64,000 nucleotides of DNA from Nitrospirota bacterium (GTDB lineage: Bacteria > Nitrospirota > Nitrospiria > Nitrospirales > NS-4): NCBI GenBank assembly GCA_005877815.1, contig VBOG01000028.1:4803-68802 (forward strand), read 5' to 3'. Shown here in pieces: positions 1,922-62,736 of the stretch. The stretch's first letter is position 1. The number at the start of each line of letters is the position of its first letter. The position numbers were made by a program, and so were the translations under genes. The notes below the pieces were generated by a model that was given only the letters and a program-made list of their open reading frames with translations, made no database searches and was not told the DNA's origin.

Positions 1922-3718
1922 TTGATAGTCGGAGTCGGGCATTGCTACAATGATGCACGTGCAGACCACTTCGGAGAAGACACATTGGAAATCCCTGCGG
2001 CGCTCATCAAGACCTTCAACACGGCGCTGAACGAGATGAGCGCCGATCTGTCGTTGATCGCGCTGAAGGAAGACGGTTTCGGCCTCTTTCAGGCTCACGC
2101 TTATCGCGGATTTTCTCCTCGCGAAACGCAAGCCATCCTCCGGGCGCTCTCCTATCCCGAAATCGGGCTTGATGCGCGGGCTCATGAAGAAAACGGCGCC
2201 CCGAAGGTCCGCATCCGCATGACGGCCCCCGCTCACCGTTCGCTCCTCGGCACACCGCTTCGCGTCAATCAACGCGTCTGCGGAGCGCTGGTCATTGGAC
2301 GGAAGGATGTGGCGGCCTTCAGCGAACGAGATCGGCGGCAACTGGAGGAGACGAAAGAAGAGCTGGAAACGGCCATTGCAAAAGCCGATATCCTGCCGAC
2401 TCTCCCCACCTCGGCGCCGGTCTCCGAAGGTCGACAACTCCTGCCGCACGCGGCGTTGACGGAGATGGACAACCCGGCGATTGAGTCCCTCATGGCCGAT
2501 ATTCGCAATCAAATTCCCTATGACCGGGCGCTCCTTACCCGGTACGACCCAGAGAGTCAGCTGTTGACCGGTTTTATGTCGTGCGCGCCCGGGCACATCG
2601 AATGGCGTCATGGACAGACCTATACCCTCGATGCGTCCGCCGCCGGGTGGGTGCTGAGGCATATGAAGCCCCGGCTGGATCGGGACCTGGCGTCCACCCA
2701 AGGACGATTCCTGGATTATAAGGAACTATACAAGGATAAGTTCAAAACAGCCCTGGTGCTGCCGCTCCGGAGGGGAGCGGACATCATCGGCACCATCGCA
2801 TTGTCCTCACGCACGCCGAACTTATACAACATGGATATGCAGCGCGCCGCCGCCGGACGTCTCGAACAGCTCGCCAAAATGCTTCCTTCGATGGGCCCCC
2901 CATCGGGCGTGACGCCATCCGCCGCGCCTGCCACGATCGCGGATTCGACGGATGCGTTCGAAGCGCGTGAGATCATGTTGCGCCAGGAGCGGCAAGCGGC
3001 CATCCGGGAACTGACGGCGTTTCTCGAGCAGGACATCCAGCGGACGCTGACGAAAACACGGATGGAGCTTGAGGAGACACTCACCGACACCGCGTCGGGC
3101 GAAACATTGACCGTCGGAGGCATGGAACGCATCGAGCAGGCGTGCCGTGAGCTGACCGGTATTGAGGCCATCCTCAATGAAATTCTCGATCATGCCAAAC
3201 CCCTTGAACTCCACCCCCGCGTGGTTCGCATTCCAGACGTCATCGACAGCGCTCTCGCGGTGATCGCCAATGACATCGAGCCTCGACGCATCAAAGTCAC
3301 GCGGCAGTTCCCGGAGGACCTGCCGGCGATCAGGGCGGATGAAGGCAAGCTGCAGCAAGTTTTTCTCAGCATTCTGAAAAACGCCCTTGAGGCCATGTCG
3401 CCGGAGGGACACATTCATATTGAAGCGCTTCCCCATAAGGGCGCGCGCGGCCGGCATGAAGTGGCGCTGACGATCCAGAACGACGGCGCCCCGATCCCGA
3501 CCGAACATATCGGAAAGATCTTCGAACCGGGCTTTACGACGAAGGCCGCCGGCACGGGGCTCGGGCTCTCCTCGGTGAAAAAAATCATCGAAGAACACCG
3601 GGGGCAGATTTCAATTGCCAGCGGTCCAGGTCAAGGGACCGCCGTGATCATTCGCCTGCCGGCACATGCAGCCGCCCGCCACCCCGGACGAGGACGGCGG
3701 CGCCCACGAAGACGCTAG
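1922..3718 (+). CDS. cytoplasmic GAF-domain sensor histidine-kinase-like protein (intact HATPase_c, atypical H-box)
   Basis: The C-terminal N-box ILKNALEAM, G1 NDGAPIP, F-box FEPGFTTK and G2 GTGLGLS are all present. The ORF-track start 1658 overlaps the PCD gene, so I prefer TTG 1922 (AAGGAG at 1912-1917) or ATG 2036. Confidence 0.8.
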   Translation: MIVGVGHCYNDARADHFGEDTLEIPAALIKTFNTALNEMSADLSLIALKEDGFGLFQAHAYRGFSPRETQAILRALSYPEIGLDARAHEENGAPKVRIRMTAPAHRSLLGTPLRVNQRVCGALVIGRKDVAAFSERDRRQLEETKEELETAIAKADILPTLPTSAPVSEGRQLLPHAALTEMDNPAIESLMADIRNQIPYDRALLTRYDPESQLLTGFMSCAPGHIEWRHGQTYTLDASAAGWVLRHMKPRLDRDLASTQGRFLDYKELYKDKFKTALVLPLRRGADIIGTIALSSRTPNLYNMDMQRAAAGRLEQLAKMLPSMGPPSGVTPSAAPATIADSTDAFEAREIMLRQERQAAIRELTAFLEQDIQRTLTKTRMELEETLTDTASGETLTVGGMERIEQACRELTGIEAILNEILDHAKPLELHPRVVRIPDVIDSALAVIANDIEPRRIKVTRQFPEDLPAIRADEGKLQQVFLSILKNALEAMSPEGHIHIEALPHKGARGRHEVALTIQNDGAPIPTEHIGKIFEPGFTTKAAGTGLGLSSVKKIIEEHRGQISIASGPGQGTAVIIRLPAHAAARHPGRGRRRPRRR

Positions 3719-3746
3719 GAACAGTGAAAACAGGCGCCCGAACGGC

Positions 3747-3775
3747 TTGACAGCGGTGTCTTAATGAGGTATCGT
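3747..3775 (+). promoter_or_regulatory. sigma-70-type promoter candidate (TTGACA-17-TATCGT)
   Basis: TTGACA at 3747-3752, a 17-nt spacer, then TATCGT at 3770-3775. It lies about 70 nt upstream of the 3848 start. Confidence 0.5.
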
Positions 3776-3847
3776 CTGGTCCGTTTTCGAGTCCCCAGGA
3801 ATTCAGTATTTGAAAGCATTAGATCCTCTTTCATTAGGAGGTTTCAT

Positions 3848-4186
3848 ATGAAACGTGCCATGTTTGTTTTTGCATTAGTTTCAGGTTTTTTGTTTATGTC
3901 GGCTGCTGCCTTCGCCAATCCGGCCCTGCTGAAAAAGCATGACGGCTACCCGGATGAGACGAAGAAGGCAACCACGTCGGTTGGTGACGCAGCCGGCTTG
4001 AAAGGCGCGGAGGATGCCCCCAAGGTCCTGAAGGAACAACTCAAGTCTGCCGATTACGGCGACCGTGCCGGCAATGCCTTCAGCGACGATCCTCGGCAGC
4101 GCAAGCACCCGGGCTATCCGGAAGGCGGTGTGACCGAAAGCCACATCAAGAACGCCACCAAAGTCAACGCCGCTCCGAAGAAGTAA
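3848..4186 (+). CDS. small secreted protein with two KHxGYP(D/E) motifs
   Basis: AGGAGG lies 7 nt upstream of ATG 3848. Signal peptide is MKRAMFVFALVSGFLFMSAAAFA. The repeated motifs are KKHDGYPDE and RKHPGYPEG. No family recognised. Confidence 0.6.
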   Translation: MKRAMFVFALVSGFLFMSAAAFANPALLKKHDGYPDETKKATTSVGDAAGLKGAEDAPKVLKEQLKSADYGDRAGNAFSDDPRQRKHPGYPEGGVTESHIKNATKVNAAPKK

Positions 4187-4207
4187 ACGCAGCGGCGAGT
4201 GATCAAA

Positions 4208-4245
4208 GGGGGGAAGGTCCGATAGGGCCTTCCCCCCTTTTTTTT
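4208..4245 (+). terminator. rho-independent terminator
   Basis: 13-bp GC-rich stem GGGGGGAAGGTCC / GGGCCTTCCCCCC with loop GATA, followed by T8. Confidence 0.8.
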
Positions 4246-4276
4246 GACGGCATCGACCACGGGAGCAGGCCGCCGC

Positions 4277-5506
4277 ATGGGTCTCATTCTTCGCGCCTTC
4301 ACGACATGGCGGATGGCCGTCATCCTGTTACTGGGATTTTCTTCCGGGATCCCGCTCGCACTGACAGGCACAACGCTCCAGGCCTGGATGAAATCGGAAG
4401 GCGCCGATCTCACGGTCATCGGACTGTTCTCGCTGGTGGGGCTGCCGTACGTTTTGAAGTTCCTCTGGGCGCCGTTGATGGATCGCTATATCCCGCCGTT
4501 TCTGGGACGCCGGCTCGGATGGATTCTGCTCTCGCAGGTGGCGCTGGTCGTCGCCATTATCGCAATGGCTTTCACCAGCCCTGTGGCACTGCCGGTCGCC
4601 GCGGCCGTCATCGCCGTCTTGATCTCGTTTTTCAGCGCGAGCCAGGACATCGTCGTGGACGCCTATCGGACGGACCTGGCGGAAACAGATGAGGTCGGTC
4701 CCGCCGCCTCGCTGTATATCGCGGGATATCGGATCGCGTTGTTGGTGTCGGGAGCGTTGGCGCTGATCCTCGCCGATCACCTGCCGTGGCGCACCGTGTA
4801 TCTCTTGATGGCGGCGACGATGACCATCGGCATCCTCGCCACATTGTTCGCGCCCGAACCGAAAACGCCCGGCACCCCTCCGCAAAGCATCGCTGAAGCC
4901 GTGATGCTGCCGTTCATGGAATATTTCCACCGGAAAGGCGCGCTGGAAATCCTGGCCTTCATCGTCCTGTACAAGATTGATGTCGTGATTGCGATGGCGA
5001 TGACAACTCCATTCCTGCTGGAGATCGGCTTCAGTAAAACGGATATCGGCGCCGTCACAAAGGGCTTTGGGTTGATCGCCACTCTGCTTGGCACGCTCAC
5101 GGGCGGCGCACTGATGGTCAGGCTCGGGATGAAGCGCTCGCTGTGGGTCTTCGGCTTGAGTCAGGGGATTTCCGGTCTCTCGTTCACGGCGCTGGCGCAT
5201 GTCGGCCATCACTATCCCATGTTGGTCGCGGCCATCGCCGCCGAAAATTTCTGTAGCGGCATGGGCACCGCGGCGTTCACCGCCTTTCTCATGACGCTCT
5301 GCGACAAACGGTTCTCCGCCACCCAATACGCGCTGCTCACCAGCATGATGGGGCTCAGCCGGGTGGTCGGCGGCGCGCCGACCGGCTATCTCGCCAAAGC
5401 GGTGGGCTGGGAACTCTATTTCTTCATCAGCGTTCTGGCCATGATCCCCGGCCTATTGTTGCTCAGCCGCTATTCCAAATGGTCGCTCCCCGAGCCAGTC
5501 AAATAG
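4277..5506 (+). CDS. ampG: AmpG-family muropeptide/MFS permease
   Basis: Multi-pass membrane protein. The N-terminus LLGFSSGIPLALTGTTLQAWM...LKFLWAPLMDRY is typical of AmpG. ATG 4277 is preferred over the alternative start at 4244, which lies in the terminator T-tract. Confidence 0.8.
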   Translation: MGLILRAFTTWRMAVILLLGFSSGIPLALTGTTLQAWMKSEGADLTVIGLFSLVGLPYVLKFLWAPLMDRYIPPFLGRRLGWILLSQVALVVAIIAMAFTSPVALPVAAAVIAVLISFFSASQDIVVDAYRTDLAETDEVGPAASLYIAGYRIALLVSGALALILADHLPWRTVYLLMAATMTIGILATLFAPEPKTPGTPPQSIAEAVMLPFMEYFHRKGALEILAFIVLYKIDVVIAMAMTTPFLLEIGFSKTDIGAVTKGFGLIATLLGTLTGGALMVRLGMKRSLWVFGLSQGISGLSFTALAHVGHHYPMLVAAIAAENFCSGMGTAAFTAFLMTLCDKRFSATQYALLTSMMGLSRVVGGAPTGYLAKAVGWELYFFISVLAMIPGLLLLSRYSKWSLPEPVK

Positions 5507-6353: not shown

Positions 6354-6847
6354 CATTCCGTCGCCCGCCCACCGATCATGACTTCTTCCAGTTTTTTGGT
6401 AAAGACGAGAAAGGACAGGCCATGCATTTTGACATCGGCGGGAACCAGTATCGGAACGCCTCCAACTCGATCGAGATCGACGGGATGGGGCACTTGTTGT
6501 TCGAGCACAACCGGCGCTACAACGACATGACGCTCAGGGGCATGCTCTTCGACCGAAACGGAAATCTCGTGGCTCGGATCTCGGAGAGCAGTCTGGCGTT
6601 GAACCTGCAGGGCGAATTCGACATCGACGTGGAAGCCTCGGTCGTACGCGTCGTCAGGCGCGAGAGCCGCGACATTTTGCTTGAAATCAAATTTCTCGAC
6701 AAGGAACACGTGCAGATCCACAAGGCGAAGCTCTACACCGGCAAAGGCCATCTCCTGGAGATCACGCCGACCTCATGGACGCTGGGGCACGACTCGCACA
6801 GCGGCGAGATCAAAGACTGTGTCGGCGAACCCGTGAGGCTATCGTGA
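6350..6847 (+). CDS. hypothetical 165-aa protein (or 141 aa from ATG 6422)
   Basis: TTG 6350 overlaps the upstream stop (TTGA). The sequence looks beta-rich. No family recognised. Confidence 0.5.
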   Translation: MTFRRPPTDHDFFQFFGKDEKGQAMHFDIGGNQYRNASNSIEIDGMGHLLFEHNRRYNDMTLRGMLFDRNGNLVARISESSLALNLQGEFDIDVEASVVRVVRRESRDILLEIKFLDKEHVQIHKAKLYTGKGHLLEITPTSWTLGHDSHSGEIKDCVGEPVRLS

Positions 6848-6849
6848 CC

Positions 6850-7674
6850 CTATTGAGCAGATTGCGCGCAGCGGAAGCCGATAAAGGCGTTGCGCGTGTC
6901 CGGCGGGACTTTCGTCGTACGGCTCGCCGAGAGCAGGTAGACCGGCATATCGGACCATGACCCTCCGCGAGTCATCTTGTACTGCCCGCGCGCCGGCCCG
7001 GGAGGATTTCGCGGAGGGCTGTCGGCATAGTACGAGCCGTCATACCAGTCCTGCACCCACTCGGCCACATTGCCAGCAAGATTGAAAGCACCGTACGGGC
7101 CCTGTCCCGTCGGATAGCTTTCCACCGACTTCAGCAAATCATACGAGAACCGCGTCATCTGCCCGAACAAGGCGAGCGACGGCTGCGGCCGTGTGTCGCC
7201 CCATGGAAATTTCTGTTCATTGCTATCCCGCGCGGCTTTTTCCCACTCAGCCTCCGTCGGCAATCGGCGCCCCGAGATTCGGCAATATGCATCGGCATCG
7301 CTCCAACTCACTCCGATGACCGGGCGATCGGCATGCTCGGGAAATTTGACGACATCCCAATTGACCGGCTTCTCCCAGCCCGTGGCGCCTAAGAACTTCG
7401 CGTAGCGGGCCGTCGTCACTTCGTATTTATCAATGTAAAAGGCATTGAGAAAGACCTGGTGGCGAGGCTGTTCATCGTCCAGCCCCTCGCCCTCCGGCAA
7501 CCCCATCCAAAAATCCCCCGCGGGCACAAGCACCATCGGGGCACCGTCCTTCCCTGTGATTTCTTTTGGGAGTGCGGGGCCGTCGGCGCCAAGACCGTCG
7601 GGGACCCGCACCGAGAGCAGCAAGAATCCGAGAATAACGAGTAGCGGCATCACCATTCGCCAACAGAAAGCCAA
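6850..7674 (-). CDS. secreted formylglycine-generating-enzyme (SUMF1/FGE-sulfatase) domain protein
   Basis: Signal peptide plus the family-typical segments RHQVFLNAFYIDKYEVT, GVSWSDADAYC, RLPTEAEWEKAAR, NVAEWVQDWY, RGGSW and GFRCA. Confidence 0.8.
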   Translation of the reverse strand: MAFCWRMVMPLLVILGFLLLSVRVPDGLGADGPALPKEITGKDGAPMVLVPAGDFWMGLPEGEGLDDEQPRHQVFLNAFYIDKYEVTTARYAKFLGATGWEKPVNWDVVKFPEHADRPVIGVSWSDADAYCRISGRRLPTEAEWEKAARDSNEQKFPWGDTRPQPSLALFGQMTRFSYDLLKSVESYPTGQGPYGAFNLAGNVAEWVQDWYDGSYYADSPPRNPPGPARGQYKMTRGGSWSDMPVYLLSASRTTKVPPDTRNAFIGFRCAQSAQ

Positions 7675-25555: not shown

Positions 25556-26545
25556 ATGAACTACCGGACACTCAGTGAAAAATCGATCGCGGGCGAAGCG
25601 CTCTCCCGTCCCGAAGCTCGCGCGGTGCTGGCCACTCCCGACGAAGCGCTTCTCGCATTGCTGGATGCCGCATTTCAAGTGCGACGGAAGTTCTTCGGAC
25701 GCAAGGTCCGGTTGCAGATGCTGCAAAACGCCAAGAGCGGCGCCTGCCAGGAAGATTGCGGCTACTGCTCCCAATCGGCGGTCTCCACGGCCGACATTTC
25801 TCAGTACGGGCTCCTGTCAAAAACCGAAATGGTCGCGGGCGCGAAGCAGGCCGCGGCATCCAAGGCCGTGCGCTACTGCATCGTGATCAGCGGGCGGGCA
25901 CCCCTCGAACGCGAGATTACCGCCATCAGCGAGGCAGTGCGTGACATTAAGCACGACGTGCCCGTCCAGGTGTGCTGCTCGCTGGGGCTCTTGACGGAAG
26001 AACACGCCGCCCGACTGAAGCAAGCCGGCGTGGATCGCATCAACCACAACCTGAACAGCTCAGAACGCTTTCATCCTGACATCGTCAGCACGCATACCTA
26101 TGAGGACCGGCTCTCCACGATCCGGAACGCGCGGGCCGTCGGCCTTGAAATCTGTTCGGGCGGCATCGCGGGCATGGGGGAAACGGATGAGGACGTGATC
26201 GACCTGGCATTTGCGTTGCGCGACGTACGGCCGGATTCGATCCCGATGAATTTTCTTCATCCGGTCGACGGCACGCCGATGCAGGGCCGGAAACATCTGA
26301 CGCCGCACAAATGCCTGAAGATCCTTTGCCTGTTCCGGTTCCTTCACCCAAAAACAGAACTGCGTGTCGCCGGCGGCCGCGAGTTCAACCTGCGCTCGAT
26401 GCAGGCTCTGGCGCTCTACCCTGCCGACTCGCTCTTCGTCGGCGGATACCTCACCACGCCGGGGATGCCGGCGGCGGAAGCCTGGAAGATGATCGAAGAC
26501 CTGGGCTTCGAGGTGGATGCCATCGGCGCGCCGGTCACAACTTAA
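25556..26545 (+). CDS. bioB: biotin synthase
   Basis: Radical SAM motif CQEDCGYCSQ in a BioB-like protein of 329 aa. Confidence 0.9.
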   Translation: MNYRTLSEKSIAGEALSRPEARAVLATPDEALLALLDAAFQVRRKFFGRKVRLQMLQNAKSGACQEDCGYCSQSAVSTADISQYGLLSKTEMVAGAKQAAASKAVRYCIVISGRAPLEREITAISEAVRDIKHDVPVQVCCSLGLLTEEHAARLKQAGVDRINHNLNSSERFHPDIVSTHTYEDRLSTIRNARAVGLEICSGGIAGMGETDEDVIDLAFALRDVRPDSIPMNFLHPVDGTPMQGRKHLTPHKCLKILCLFRFLHPKTELRVAGGREFNLRSMQALALYPADSLFVGGYLTTPGMPAAEAWKMIEDLGFEVDAIGAPVTT

Positions 26546-26580
26546 CCTTACGCGAGGCATGCCGTCGAGTCACCGAGGGT

Positions 26581-26725
26581 ACCCGTTGCTCTTTGCGCGG
26601 GTCCTGTCGGCGCATCACCCGAACGTGCTCAGGCCCTTTCGCCTTCGAGGCCCCGCAGATCAGGCTGTAGTGCCCTCCGCTCCGCTCGGGTCCCATGCGG
26701 CGCCACCCGCACGATTGCAACGGGT
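26581..26725 (+). repeat. 145-nt long-hairpin repeat, copy 1 (full core)
   Basis: Aligns without gaps to the reverse complement of 61758-61902, with 24 mismatches in 145 nt by my hand count. Terminal inverted repeats are ACCCGTTGC and GCAACGGGT. Confidence 0.85.
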
Positions 26726-26744
26726 CGTGTCGTTACGCTATCGC

Positions 26745-26824
26745 GGCCGTCGAAGATCCGGCTCCACGACCCTGCGCTCCGCCCGGGTCCCACTCGACGT
26801 CACCCGCGCCATTTCAACATCTGC
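26745..26824 (+). repeat. degenerate partial direct copy of the right half of the hairpin repeat
   Basis: GCCGTCGAAG...CGCTCCGCCCGGGTCCCA...CACCCGCGCCATTTCAAC parallels 26642-26725. Confidence 0.55.
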
Positions 26825-26859
26825 TGAGAGTCTGCGGCGCGCACAATGTCCAATCATTT

Positions 26860-27010
26860 GGGAACGGGTGGCGCGTAGCTGGGCTCATTGCACCCAACCA
26901 CCCCTCGCCGGCCAAGACTGGCTTTTGTCCCGTGGCCATCGCCCGCCGCCGCATTCGCGAAGCGGCCTGGGATAGCACGGCGGGATGCTGAGCTGACAGG
27001 ACCCGTTCCC
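26860..27010 (+). repeat. 151-bp segment sharing both termini with the 61677-61931 element
   Basis: The left end GGGAACGGGTGGCGCGTAGC is identical over 20 nt to 61677-61696. The right end GCTGAGCTGACAGGACCCGTTCCC is nearly identical to 61909-61931. The ends are inverted repeats (GGGAACGGGT / ACCCGTTCCC). The interior is unrelated. Confidence 0.7.
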
Positions 27011-27031
27011 AGGATGATGCGAAAACTTGAT

Positions 27032-27829
27032 TTAAGGAGCGGCGGCGCCTTTTTTAAGAGAGGGCGCAAGCAGCGCGCGGAATGCCTCGGAATCCTTCCT
27101 CTCCACGTCCGGCAACGCGTCGGCCTCGCGGTACACCCGTTCAGGGTCTGCGGCAATCGTCTCACACAGGCGGTGAACGGCGAGCACGGCGCTGGTCAAT
27201 CGGTTATTGACGGCGCGCTGCAGGATCGGCCGCAGGACCTGCACCAACATCGCCACATAGGGGTTCTCGAGCTTCGAGTAGATGATGATCCGCGTCTCCA
27301 CCAGCTCCCGCCCGTCAGGCGCCGCTTTCGGATGGTAGTTCAGCATGACGACGGCAGCGCCCGCAATCATCGGGAAAAGAGACGACCGCTGACTTCCCTT
27401 GATGTGATACACCCGCCTCTGTCCGTCCTGATATAGCACCGTGACCAGCCCTTCGCCTCCCTGTCCATCGTCTCCCTGGTAGGCGTCTGCGCCGACCTGG
27501 CTGATGCGTGTCGCCGCGAGTGAGAGCTGCCTGACCAATGTGGCCGTCAAGACCGGATGGTCGAGCAGAAAGTCATAGATGCTCTTCGGAATCGGCACGC
27601 TAGCCGGCGGATCGATGCGGTGCGTGGTATAGCCATTGACGACGGCCGCCATGCGGCAGACCGCTTCAGGCGCCATCTTGTCGACGGGAAACAGGACATC
27701 CGGCTGTTCGACCCGGATGGGGCAGGGAACGTCGGCAGCGGCCAGGTCGAACACGCAGACGACGACCGCCACGCCCAGCACATAGGCGATCCCCTTCGAT
27801 CCCGGCGGTGACGTCGTGGCGATCTTCAC
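27032..27829 (-). CDS. hypothetical exported or membrane-anchored protein (265 aa)
   Basis: GTG 27829 lies 11 nt after the yjbQ stop, and the hydrophobic N-terminus is GIAYVLGVAVVVCVF. The track start 28066 overlaps yjbQ. No family recognised. Confidence 0.5.
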   Translation of the reverse strand: MKIATTSPPGSKGIAYVLGVAVVVCVFDLAAADVPCPIRVEQPDVLFPVDKMAPEAVCRMAAVVNGYTTHRIDPPASVPIPKSIYDFLLDHPVLTATLVRQLSLAATRISQVGADAYQGDDGQGGEGLVTVLYQDGQRRVYHIKGSQRSSLFPMIAGAAVVMLNYHPKAAPDGRELVETRIIIYSKLENPYVAMLVQVLRPILQRAVNNRLTSAVLAVHRLCETIAADPERVYREADALPDVERKDSEAFRALLAPSLKKGAAAP

Positions 27830-29854: not shown

Positions 29855-29968
29855 GCGGGTGGCGCCGCATGGGACCGGGCGGAGCGGAAGAGCCTACAGC
29901 CGAGTGGACGGGGCTGCGACGGCGATTCGACCCGTCGCACGTCCGGGTCATGCGCCGACAGGACCCGC
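29855..29968 (-). repeat. hairpin repeat, copy 3 (truncated core, about 114 nt)
   Basis: GCGGGTGGCGCCGCATGGGACC...GACAGGACCCGC matches 61774-61887 on the same strand and the reverse complement of copy 1. It lacks the outermost ACCCGTTGC arms. Confidence 0.75.
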
Positions 29969-34705: not shown

Positions 34706-35548
34706 TTATTTCAGCCCTAGCACATCTTGCATGTCGTACAGCCCTGGAGACTGCTTCACCACCCACGCGGCGGCGCGCAGCGCGCCGCGCGCGAAGGTAT
34801 CGCGGCTGGTCGCGCGGTGCGTGACTTCAATGCGTTCTCCCATCCCGCCGAACAGAACCGTATGGTCGCCGACAATGTCGCCGGCGCGAATGACCTGCAT
34901 CCCGATTTCTCCCTGTTTCCGCTCGCCGACGATCCCCTTGCGCCCGTAGGTCGCCACCGAGTCGAAGTCCTTTCCGGTGGCTTCCGCCAGCACCTTGGCG
35001 AGCTTCAGCGCCGTGCCGCTCGGCGCGTCTTTCTTCAGCCGGTGATGGGCCTCGGTGACTTCGATATCGTAATCATCTTTGAAGGTCCGGGCCATCTCCG
35101 CGACAACTTTGAGGAGCACATTGACGCCGACACTCATGTTCGGAGAAAAGACGCACGGAACGCTCCGGGCGATGGTGACCAGTTCGGCAAGTTGCGGCGT
35201 GGAGAGGCCGGTGGTGCCGATGACCATTGCCTTGCGATGCAGGGCCATGGCGTGCAGGTTCGCCAGCACCGCCTCCGGAGCGGTGAAATCTATGAGCACA
35301 TCGGCCGCACCCGCGATGGCGGTCACATCATCGCTCAGCGAGATTCCGAGCCTCGCGCAGCCTGCCAGTTCTCCGACGTCCTGCCCAATAGCGTCATGCC
35401 CCTTCCTCTCGACGGCGCCTGTCAGCTGAAACGTTTTCGATTCATCGATGAGGCTGATCAGACGCGCGCCCATGCGGCCGGCAGCTCCGGCCACAATGAC
35501 CTTGATCGCTTTAGACTCTTTATTTTGATGCCGTGCCACCAACGCCAT
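34706..35548 (-). CDS. dapB: 4-hydroxy-tetrahydrodipicolinate reductase
   Basis: N-terminal IKVIVAGAAGRMG, then EAHHRLKKDAPSGTA. Confidence 0.9.
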   Translation of the reverse strand: MALVARHQNKESKAIKVIVAGAAGRMGARLISLIDESKTFQLTGAVERKGHDAIGQDVGELAGCARLGISLSDDVTAIAGAADVLIDFTAPEAVLANLHAMALHRKAMVIGTTGLSTPQLAELVTIARSVPCVFSPNMSVGVNVLLKVVAEMARTFKDDYDIEVTEAHHRLKKDAPSGTALKLAKVLAEATGKDFDSVATYGRKGIVGERKQGEIGMQVIRAGDIVGDHTVLFGGMGERIEVTHRATSRDTFARGALRAAAWVVKQSPGLYDMQDVLGLK

Positions 35549-35631
35549 CCACCTCTTCGCATCAATACCAACGCCCTGCACAACTCTCCTGCTTTGTCGC
35601 TGTTACAGATCGAAGTGAGAGGCGAGGTCGC

Positions 35632-61676: not shown

Positions 61677-61931
61677 GGGAACGGGTGGCGCGTAGCGGGC
61701 GCCCTGAGCCCGGCGTGAGTAAGTCCGCGCGAGGCTTTGCGACGAACGACCGGATTGACCCGTTGCAGTCGCGCGGGTGGTGCCGCATGGGACCCAGGCG
61801 GAGCGGAGTAGCGTACAGCCGAGTCTGCGGGGCTTCGACGGCGAAACGCCGCGAGCACGTCTGGGTGATGCGGCGACACGACCCGCGCAAAGAGCAATGG
61901 GTTCCCCGGCTGAGCGACAGGACCCGTTCCC
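61677..61931 (-). repeat. hairpin repeat, copy 2 (145-nt core 61758-61902 nested in a 255-bp unit with GGGAACGGGT/ACCCGTTCCC termini)
   Basis: The core is about 83% identical to the reverse complement of 26581-26725. The outer termini are shared with 26860-27010. It occupies the potC-potD spacer. Confidence 0.85.
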
Positions 61932-61971: not shown

Positions 61972-62736
61972 TCATTTCCTCTGCACCCACGTCGCCACCG
62001 CCACCAGCCCCATCGAGATCACCACCAGCACCGCCGATAACGCATTCACCTCCGGCGTCACCGCCGTCTTCAGCATGCCATACACCTTGATCGGCAAAGT
62101 GGTCGAACCGACCCCGGCCAGAAAGAAGCTGATGATGAAGTCGTCCAGCGACAGCGTGAACGCCATGAGCAGCGCGCCGATGATGCCGGGCATGAGCAGC
62201 GGCAGCGTGACCCGTCGGAATGCGGTCCACGGCGTCGCGCCCAGGTCCAACGCGGCCTCTTCAAGCTGCGGGTCCAGCTTTCGCAGGCGCGCACGCACGA
62301 TCAGCGCCACGACCGGAAAGTTAAACATCGTGTGGGCAATGATGATCGTCACCAGCGAAAGCTTGACGCCGATCATGACGAAGAACAGCAGCATCGCCAC
62401 GCCCATCATGATCTCGGGGATAATGATCGGCAGCAGCAGCACGCCTTCACATGCATGAAGACCAGGGAATGCCTGGCGCTCCAAGGCCACGGCCGTCAGC
62501 ACGCCGAGCATGCCGGCGAGAATCGTCGACACCACGGCGACGATGAGGCTGTTCCAGGTTGACGATAACAACGCCTCATGGGTGAACAGCTTCGCATACC
62601 ACTGGAGCGAGAACCCCTGCCAGCGCGCGGAAAACTTTGACGCGTTGAATGAGAACACGATGAGGATCGCGATCGGGAGGTACAGGAACAGCAGGTCCGT
62701 GATGCTTGCCGCGACGATCCAATGACGGGTTTTCAT
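61972..62736 (-). CDS. potC: spermidine/putrescine ABC transporter permease PotC
   Basis: Six-TM permease with an EAA-loop-like LEEAALDLGATPWTAFRRVTLP. ATG 62736 is preferred (10 nt after the potB stop). Confidence 0.85.
   Translation of the reverse strand: MKTRHWIVAASITDLLFLYLPIAILIVFSFNASKFSARWQGFSLQWYAKLFTHEALLSSTWNSLIVAVVSTILAGMLGVLTAVALERQAFPGLHACEGVLLLPIIIPEIMMGVAMLLFFVMIGVKLSLVTIIIAHTMFNFPVVALIVRARLRKLDPQLEEAALDLGATPWTAFRRVTLPLLMPGIIGALLMAFTLSLDDFIISFFLAGVGSTTLPIKVYGMLKTAVTPEVNALSAVLVVISMGLVAVATWVQRK

Follow-up and report, generated by a model that had tools for sequence, protein, structure and literature searches.

The biotin synthase gene bioB (25556-26545, plus strand; TIGR00433, E 1e-117) is followed by a spacer filled with nested hairpin repeats in a 64-kb stretch of a Nitrospirales contig, hereafter the window, whose host lineage is an uncultured soil Nitrospirales bacterium. 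Positions are those of the window, and L-numbers denote the other contigs and loci compared with it. Beyond the spacer lies a convergent gene on the minus strand (27032-27829), encoding a 265-aa protein of no Pfam family. This neighbour of bioB is kept in relatives: gene calls place it in L001-L010, and L038 and L039 have orthologues. Its codon score is +0.21. The spacer runs for 486 nt (26546-27031) between the bioB stop (26545) and the stop of the convergent gene (27032), and not for 485 nt as a first-pass annotation of the stretch had it. The same annotation had described the spacer as nearly all repeat-derived, and this part stands. Starting 6 nt past the bioB stop, after a linker (26546-26551), a composite of three nested elements that we write A2 > B > A occupies 26552-26822 on the minus strand. 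It is separated by 37 nt (26823-26859) from a C-type unit on the plus strand (26860-27010), which is followed by a 21-nt linker (27011-27031). The composite and the C unit together make up 422 of the 486 spacer bases (87%).

An identical BioB sequence was found to be encoded on at least 23 contigs. Eight ENA/JGI soil assemblies (L001-L005, L007, L008 and L010) span the spacer and both flanking genes at 99.9-100% identity, with a spacer length of 486-487 nt. These assemblies are independent, their samples and pipelines being different, which makes an artefact or chimeric join at this palindromic region hardly credible, even though two contigs misbehave here. L006 ends within the central repeat, and L009, whose BioB is 100% identical, departs from the window sequence at 26726, straight after that repeat. 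From there L009 (its positions 2412-2510) shows the outer element of a different locus together with its flank, a composite also present in L096 and L062, and is probably a chimeric assembler join at the repeat.

Comparing the window with itself, we recovered the similarities that had been reported for the core, the partial copy and the 151-bp unit, all at the places given and far beyond chance. The core (26577-26726) matches 61906-61757 over 150 nt (83%, E 9e-41) and 29968-29855 over 115 nt (79%, E 3e-21), while 26751-26818 is 76% identical to 26654-26721. Interspersed repeats in the 64 kb are limited to the spacer, 29855, 61677 and a small palindrome at 4205-4240, and TRF detected no tandem array. 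The view of the spacer as a mosaic of one interspersed repeat family was upheld.

Alignment of its copies showed that element A is a long imperfect hairpin of about 114 nt (GCGGGTGGCGCCGCATGGGACCC...GAGCACGTCCGGGTGATGCGGCGACAGGACCCGC), with conserved and paired arms of about 30 nt and a variable tip. B is a hairpin of about 40 nt (TGACCCGTTGCA-N4-6-AAGAGCAACGGGTRCCCC). C and A2 are subfamilies of A. The terminal stem of C (GGGAACGGGT/ACCCGTTCCC) is 5 bp longer than that of A, and A2 has the termini GGGGTGAC/GCGGGTGAC plus an extension, GATGTTG...GGC, that is also present in L024, L028, L029 and L034. The elements end in GCGGGT...ACCCGC (A), TGACCCGTTGCA (B) and GGGAACGGGT (C). The lengths of A peak at 114 nt (50 of 96 measured), and the minor lengths follow the cargo: 95-98 nt, 127-128 nt with a GTAG-headed repetitive extragenic palindromic (REP) doublet inside A, 144 nt with a solo B inside A, and 152-218 nt when nested. 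The A unit is defined by its ends, and its tip tolerates unrelated cargo.

The composite next to bioB is built of these parts, one inside the other. Reading along the forward strand, it begins with the 3' arm of an A2 outer element (26552-26576; minus strand TCGGTGACTCGACGGCATGCCTCGC), which has the layout of an A 3' arm. Next come the right arm of hairpin B (26577-26596; minus strand GCAAAGAGCAACGGGTACCC), a full-length inner A of 114 nt on the minus strand (26597-26710; GCGGGTGGCGCCGCATGGGACC...GACAGGACCCGC) and the left arm of B (26711-26726; minus strand GACCCGTTGCAATCGT). What had been called the core is therefore B with an A element in its loop. The inner A is a confident family member (nhmmer E 4e-26 over model positions 1-114; covariance model 118 bits, E 1e-18), and the right arm of B was seen at 13 places across the loci, with or without an A element in the loop. 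The remaining minus-strand segment (26727-26822) is the 5' part of the outer A2 element, model positions 1-82, with its terminal extension. The A profile maps 26725-26807 to model positions 1-82 (nhmmer E 7e-7; covariance model E 4e-4), and this part ends right at the core's B arm.

This segment had been taken for a partial direct copy of the right half of the core. The 76% similarity is real, but the segment is not a separate half-unit: it is the 5' two-thirds, and thus the larger part, of an outer hairpin element of about 114 nt that is interrupted by the core and has its remainder at 26552-26576. Helix 2 of the outer element supports this. Its strand ACTCGACG complements CGTCGAGT of the 5' arm (26790s) at every base, so that this 8-bp stem is fully compensated (CGTCGAGT/ACTCGACG versus the consensus CGCCGCAT/ATGCGGCG) across the 150-nt core. 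A fold of 26548-26812 likewise paired the two ends around the inner hairpin. The nested insertion that the first-pass annotation had offered as one explanation is thereby borne out.

The C-type unit (26860-27010) has A-like ends, GGGAACGGGTGGCGCG...GACAGGACCCGTTCCC. As had been noted, these ends (23 and 24 nt) are about 96% identical to those of 61677-61931, and the unit lies in the opposite orientation to the core. Its interior had been called unrelated, which is true of about 85 nt but not of the last 32 nt of the unit, which are 78% identical to the A 3' arm and form an inverted pair with it (I1). As a formal member of the A family the unit was rejected, being missed by the profile (no nhmmer match at E < 0.01) and by the covariance model (only 26980-27006, at E 9). 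Its relationship to A is instead suggested by the common ends and by two shorter relatives of intermediate form, of about 75 nt in L062 and about 100 nt in L112. Since the unit has complete ends of its own, an independent insertion in the other orientation suffices, and the inversion that had been proposed to follow the nesting is not needed.

The composite at 61677-61931 (plus strand; fold z = -4.0) has the same architecture as the nest in the spacer, with C as the outer element (C > B > A). The left part of C (61677-61756) is followed by the left arm of B (61757-61772), an A element (61773-61886), the right arm of B (61887-61906) and the right end of C (61907-61931). B+A enters at the same place as in the spacer, between ...GAGC and GG(Y)TGA.... 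Considering that the interior of this composite is mostly the nested B+A unit, it is clear why only its ends match the 151-bp unit.

The same nesting recurred outside the window. C > B > A composites with different flanks were found in L104 (95%) and in L148, L075 and L070 (84%), and A > B > A composites in L036 (twice), L094 and L096. B carries A in its own loop at 26577-26726 and 61757-61906 and in L026, L029, L036 and L094. B alone was found in L038 and L040, and alone within A in L014, L028, L033, L089 and L097. Other contents of A included GTAG-headed REP doublets (L045, L057, L059, L133 and L138), and in L127 the interior of A had taken up an unrelated element whose terminal inverted repeats (GGGAATAATGTTCAAAAGGTATTGG) measure 25 nt. 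L026 and L030 belong to one metagenome-assembled genome (MAG) and, as recent copies at different loci, differ at 1 of 114 positions.

We next turn to how the spacer arose. In L039 (BioB 82% identical) there is no spacer, and bioB and the orthologous convergent gene share 14 nt, while in L038 (BioB 80% identical) the gap between the two genes is 4 nt. The spacer is almost certainly a lineage-specific gain, with the repeat cluster acquired by insertion. The insertion left the BioB C-terminus unchanged, with protein length and C-terminal motif as in L040. Other palindromic repeats, of the GTAG type, follow bioB in L040 and L041, which suggests that the bioB 3' end is a recurrent landing place; the one in L040 (9340-9430) is a classic GTAG-headed REP doublet. 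Presence and absence also vary elsewhere. The window is empty at about 6832-6857 and at 35507-35631, where an A element is present in L011, L018, L019, L031 and L013. Decay was seen in L086, which retains a 25-nt minus-strand remnant (GCGGGTGGCGCCGCATGGGACCCGC) with the 22-mer arm at 1317-1338, at a place where L017 and L022 carry full copies of 113-116 nt. Such a remnant would be left if the hairpin had lost the stretch between its two GGACCC direct repeats.

The family was traced by exact matches to a 22-mer from the conserved left arm (GCGGGTGGYGCCGCATGGGACC). In the GTDB set of one genome per species, 27 contigs matched, all but one from Nitrospirales, Nitrospirae or Nitrospiria MAGs. The lone exception, L021 (JACRDG010000013.1, a 'Desulfomonile tiedjei' MAG), is probably mis-binned, since its flank is orthologous to that of L020, a Nitrospiria MAG. 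More than 119 soil and groundwater metagenome contigs also matched. A phage origin was rejected, as the 22-mer occurs on no IMG/VR contig, and so was a plasmid origin, as neither the core nor the 151-bp unit had a BLAST match among PLSDB plasmids in 'distant' mode. The nearest named BioB proteins are from Nitrospirota MAGs (81%), with those of the genus Nitrospira at about 70%. The family is confined to uncultured soil and groundwater Nitrospirales MAGs. We found no description of such repeats for Nitrospira or Nitrospirales in the literature. The family is previously undescribed, yet among bacterial repeats its type is an ordinary one, and the findings do not establish a new kind of system.

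The long open reading frames (ORFs) of the spacer are non-coding artefacts of the repeats, as had been suspected. They had no Pfam or NCBIfam match, and their codon-usage scores per codon ranged from -0.14 to -0.21, compared with +0.09 to +0.26 for neighbouring genes; a protein-coding spacer was therefore rejected. L038 and L039 have no spacer and hence no such protein. Intrinsic terminators and promoters were also rejected, with no promoter-like site in the spacer and a single terminator-like site, which is the chance level.

What is conserved in A is its fold. RNAalifold on 31 copies yielded a 25-pair hairpin in which 94.9% of cells are paired and 13 of the 25 pairs have changes on both sides. 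None of 500 shuffles reached these values, and slid partners were only 33-41% paired. The A hairpin is under selection. Its apical loop holds a conserved 17-nt sequence. At 84 distinct insertion sites we found no target-site duplication of 3 nt or more, and 14 duplications of 2 nt compared with 9.4 expected by chance. The preference for flanking bases is weak (GA|...|GC).

We also asked which strand folds and where the elements lie. The 41 site clusters with a single orientation comprised 23 in tandem, 12 in convergent and 6 in divergent gene contexts, which indicates that the elements have no fixed association with gene ends. Among 79 distinct copies the forward strand has 47 G.T pairs compared with 21 A.C pairs, and between co-directional genes this strand is antisense at 17 site clusters versus 6 (27 versus 9 with looser de-replication), although the wobble and orientation counts are small, depend on rough gene calling and lack phylogenetic independence. 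If these trends are real, the folding strand is mostly not the mRNA strand, which is suggestive of folding as single-stranded DNA rather than as mRNA.

Together we consider it likely that the spacer is a pile-up of small, non-coding and non-autonomous mobile elements of a Nitrospirales-restricted family that move as single-stranded hairpins, in the manner of REPINs, which are REP doublets that form hairpins and are moved by RAYT tyrosine transposases (Bertels and Rainey 2011, PMC3116915). That the elements are mobile and non-autonomous is very probable; that the mechanism is single-stranded and of the HUH type is a tentative proposal. In the proposed order of events, bioB and the convergent gene would originally have abutted. 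A2 would then have inserted 6 nt past the bioB stop codon, and a B+A unit would have entered A2 near its 3' arm. A C-type element, oppositely oriented, would independently have inserted with a gap of 21 nt to the convergent gene's stop. The elements would move as folded single strands that a trans-acting enzyme cuts and rejoins without target duplication, and the most likely candidate for this enzyme would be a Y1 HUH tyrosine transposase of the RAYT/TIRYT type. If only the terminal arms were needed, an element would stay mobile after an internal insertion, and composites could spread whole.

Nesting might result from targeting of hairpin loops or from the harmlessness of landing inside an existing repeat. 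The unrelated elements inside A, namely the REP doublets and the L127 element, give some weight to harmless landing. A stronger form of the targeting idea, which we regard as unlikely, is that one trans-acting HUH enzyme resembling TIRYT recognises the folded arms of these single-stranded hairpins and targets the loops of the family itself, with A entering the B loop, B entering two fixed positions in A, and composites staying mobile since only the outermost arms would count. If this were true, the preferred target of the repeat family would be itself, and nests would arise by targeting and not by selection.

Several findings weigh against movement of the elements as REPIN-like mobile hairpins, or against parts of that proposal. 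No recent movement was detected within the species, the spacer being fixed in all eight assemblies. Three lineages (29855, L025 and L030) have kept an A element at the same orthologous promoter site, and such persistence could reflect a host function rather than selfish spread. B+A repeatedly enters after model positions ~78 and ~88, which common descent from a single A::B subfamily could explain without any targeting. In about 1 Mb around 190 copies, a sample in which a single-copy gene would rarely be included, we detected neither a transposase nor an autonomous copy. The search combined tblastn with approximate RayT-like and IS608-like Y1 queries and with the IS110 fragments of L038, a regular expression for the HUH/Y motif, and a screen for pairs of inverted A termini with a spacing of 0.45-2.6 kb. 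Between the paired copies of L015, L029, L033, L036 and L037 lay only ordinary-looking or spurious ORFs, and no full-length insertion sequence (IS) with A termini was found among about 150 loci. Finally, the canonical A termini (GCGGGTGG) differ from those expected of repeats tied to TIRYT genes, fitting only 6 of the 8 positions of the motif GGGGWSAS (6/8 for the end CGGGTGGC).

Other explanations were weighed against the same evidence. The elements could be conventional MITEs (miniature transposable elements with inverted repeats), deletion derivatives of an IS with a DDE transposase that move as double-stranded DNA through their terminal inverted repeats. Their imperfect terminal inverted repeats of about 30 nt, lengths of 95-255 nt, lack of coding capacity, many copies and variable interiors all have this appearance. 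DDE transposition nearly always makes a target-site duplication, however, and none was found at the 84 distinct sites. The compensatory changes also run through the interior and are not restricted to the ends, and a full-length IS with these ends was not found among more than 140 loci, leaving a MITE improbable. The first-pass annotation had likened the spacer to a bacterial interspersed mosaic element (BIME) of the REP type, in which GTAG-type REPs moved by a RAYT would form a mosaic like that of Escherichia coli. The elements are indeed palindromic, extragenic, clustered and without target duplication, and genuine GTAG-headed REP doublets exist in related genomes. Yet the units measure 114 nt compared with 20-40 nt for REPs, only B (about 40 nt) being in that size range, their ends have no GTAG or CGTC head, and the window contains no GTAGGGGC-type REP. 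Moreover, they are nested (A2 > B > A and C > B > A) and do not form an alternating array with linker motifs, while the GTAG-headed doublets of the relatives are separate modules inside A. The REP/BIME reading fails on these defining features, and we give it very little credence. Inspection by eye led us to reject integron attC sites as well, since neither B nor A agrees with the RYYYAAC/GTTRRRY core sites and the copies do not mark off cassettes.

It is also conceivable that A is a structured RNA, either a multi-copy small RNA or a cis-acting mRNA element (a 3' stabiliser, an attenuator or an RNase target), that acts on the two convergent transcripts, which would account for the several copies in the spacer. 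The strong covariation of the 25-pair hairpin, its conserved 17-nt apical loop, the excess of G.U over A.C wobble on one strand, and the site kept in three lineages would all suit an RNA, as would the enrichment of convergent spacers (12 of 41 site clusters versus 18% of all intergenic spaces). Against this, a known RNA family was rejected on the Rfam results: gathering thresholds returned only tRNA elsewhere in the window, and at E <= 10 only chance-level matches appeared, none of them to A. The spacer has no promoter-like site, and its one terminator-like site is within chance. Copies lie in all three gene contexts (tandem, convergent and divergent) and in either orientation, and where genes run in tandem the wobble-tolerant strand is mostly antisense to them. 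Copies are present or absent between relatives, nested, truncated and loaded with unrelated cargo, and a purely RNA-level function does not explain how composites were copied to new loci. An RNA is therefore doubtful as the primary identity of A, if slightly less so than a MITE. The spacer repeats possibly stabilise or end the two convergent transcripts, but mobile hairpins do not need a role for the flanking genes.

Among known systems, REPINs and the terminal inverted repeats tied to TIRYT genes are closest in behaviour. Like REPINs, the A family consists of extragenic hairpins of about 100 nt with two inverted arms, present in many copies and without target duplication. It also shares with them mostly vertical inheritance in the lineage, long persistence at sites and compensatory evolution of the stem. 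The absence of target duplication, the dependence on a hairpin, and the restriction to one lineage with persistence at sites fit the lifestyle of REPINs and RAYTs (PMC3116915). Unlike REPINs, the arms of A are not short GTAG-headed palindromes, no RAYT was found in the roughly 1 Mb around the copies, and A-family elements carry variable cargo at the tip and nest at defined positions. GTAG-headed REP doublets do occur in related Nitrospirales (GTAGGGGCAACCC...GGTTGCCC and GGGCGGAC...GTCCGCCCCTAC), and a RAYT therefore likely exists in some of the relatives that carry them.

TIRYT genes are RAYT-like and flanked by longer inverted repeats with the GGGGWSAS motif, which form dispersed families (Di Nocera et al. 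2013, PMC3733652; Quentin et al. 2018, PMC6006769). The A family resembles these TIRtrons in that its units are longer inverted repeats unrelated to GTAG REPs and occur singly, as dimers or in clusters, in soil bacteria. In addition, the A2 termini GGGGTGAC fit GGGGWSAS (motif from PMC3733652). Conversely, no TIRYT gene flanked by A-family ends was seen in the loci examined, and the possible TIRYT link is a lead from the literature rather than a result.

Other families are less similar. ERIC/IRU and YPAL of enterobacteria resemble the A family as intergenic imperfect palindromes of about 127 nt, with longer variants made by insertion at fixed sites in the interior, hairpin-preserving substitutions and no known transposase. 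They belong to another phylum, however, and ERICs are reported mostly in transcribed regions, while A also occurs in divergent promoter regions; the ERIC consensus primer had no match. BIMEs of E. coli and BOX elements of Streptococcus pneumoniae also combine a few module types in varying ways at gene 3' ends, but their modules stand side by side, whereas the A family nests in loops, up to three levels. Correia/NEMIS elements of Neisseria (100-155 bp) have terminal inverted repeats, form hairpins and occur in many intergenic copies. Correia elements differ in duplicating a TA target, which the A family does not, and in carrying an integration host factor (IHF) site, and we found no sequence similarity between the two.

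These repeats have practical consequences. Gene callers report false ORFs in or through them, such as a 98-aa ORF called in L008 and the 63 cases of open frames that read through A elements, and assemblers break or mis-join at them, as in L006 and L009. The understanding of bioB or its neighbours is unchanged. The family offers a clear case in soil Nitrospirales of hairpin repeats with long persistence, compensatory change, no target duplication, and exact nests and empty sites. It thereby provides material for asking how REPIN-like elements move and whether they nest by targeting or by safe landing.

Another copy in the window is a solitary A on the plus strand (29855-29968), in the divergent promoter region of a dnaJ-like gene and a thioredoxin-domain gene, 38 nt and 44 nt from their respective start codons. 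The orthologous site is occupied by different A subtypes in L025 (3759-3853) and L030 (2271-2427). With flanks that are 72-75% identical, the three lineages thus hold three subtypes at one site, pointing to replacement of one element by another at a hot spot, or else to a conserved role.

The composite at 61677-61931 has an unusual gene context. Its 255 nt correspond to 85 codons with no in-frame stop. An ATG at 61975 overlaps the stop of an ABC permease gene ('ATGA'), and the composite lies between this ATG and the signal peptide of a SBP_bac_8 lipoprotein. No ATG, GTG or TTG occurs between the composite and the signal peptide of this downstream solute-binding protein. A 78%-identical orthologue in L156 (11890-12060) is in the same in-frame situation with a different composite. 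In a 99.8%-identical strain (L157, 3495-4650) the gene instead starts at a GTG of its own, encodes another signal peptide and is accompanied by an additional 1.1 kb of DNA. The composite may be an in-frame insertion of the RPE kind or mark an unusual start site. Since open frames through A are common, the frame at this locus is weak evidence for translation.

Two smaller features complete the picture. Between proB and proA, which are adjacent in the species of the window, L038 carries a frameshifted IS110-family transposase (Transposase_20; 3008-4300). IS110/IS1111 elements are known to target REP-like hairpins. The L038 copy adjoins a B hairpin and what is left of an A 3' arm, but no link to the A family emerged. 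The sole other repeat in the self-comparison of the window, at 4205-4240, is a 36-nt palindrome that is 89% self-complementary.

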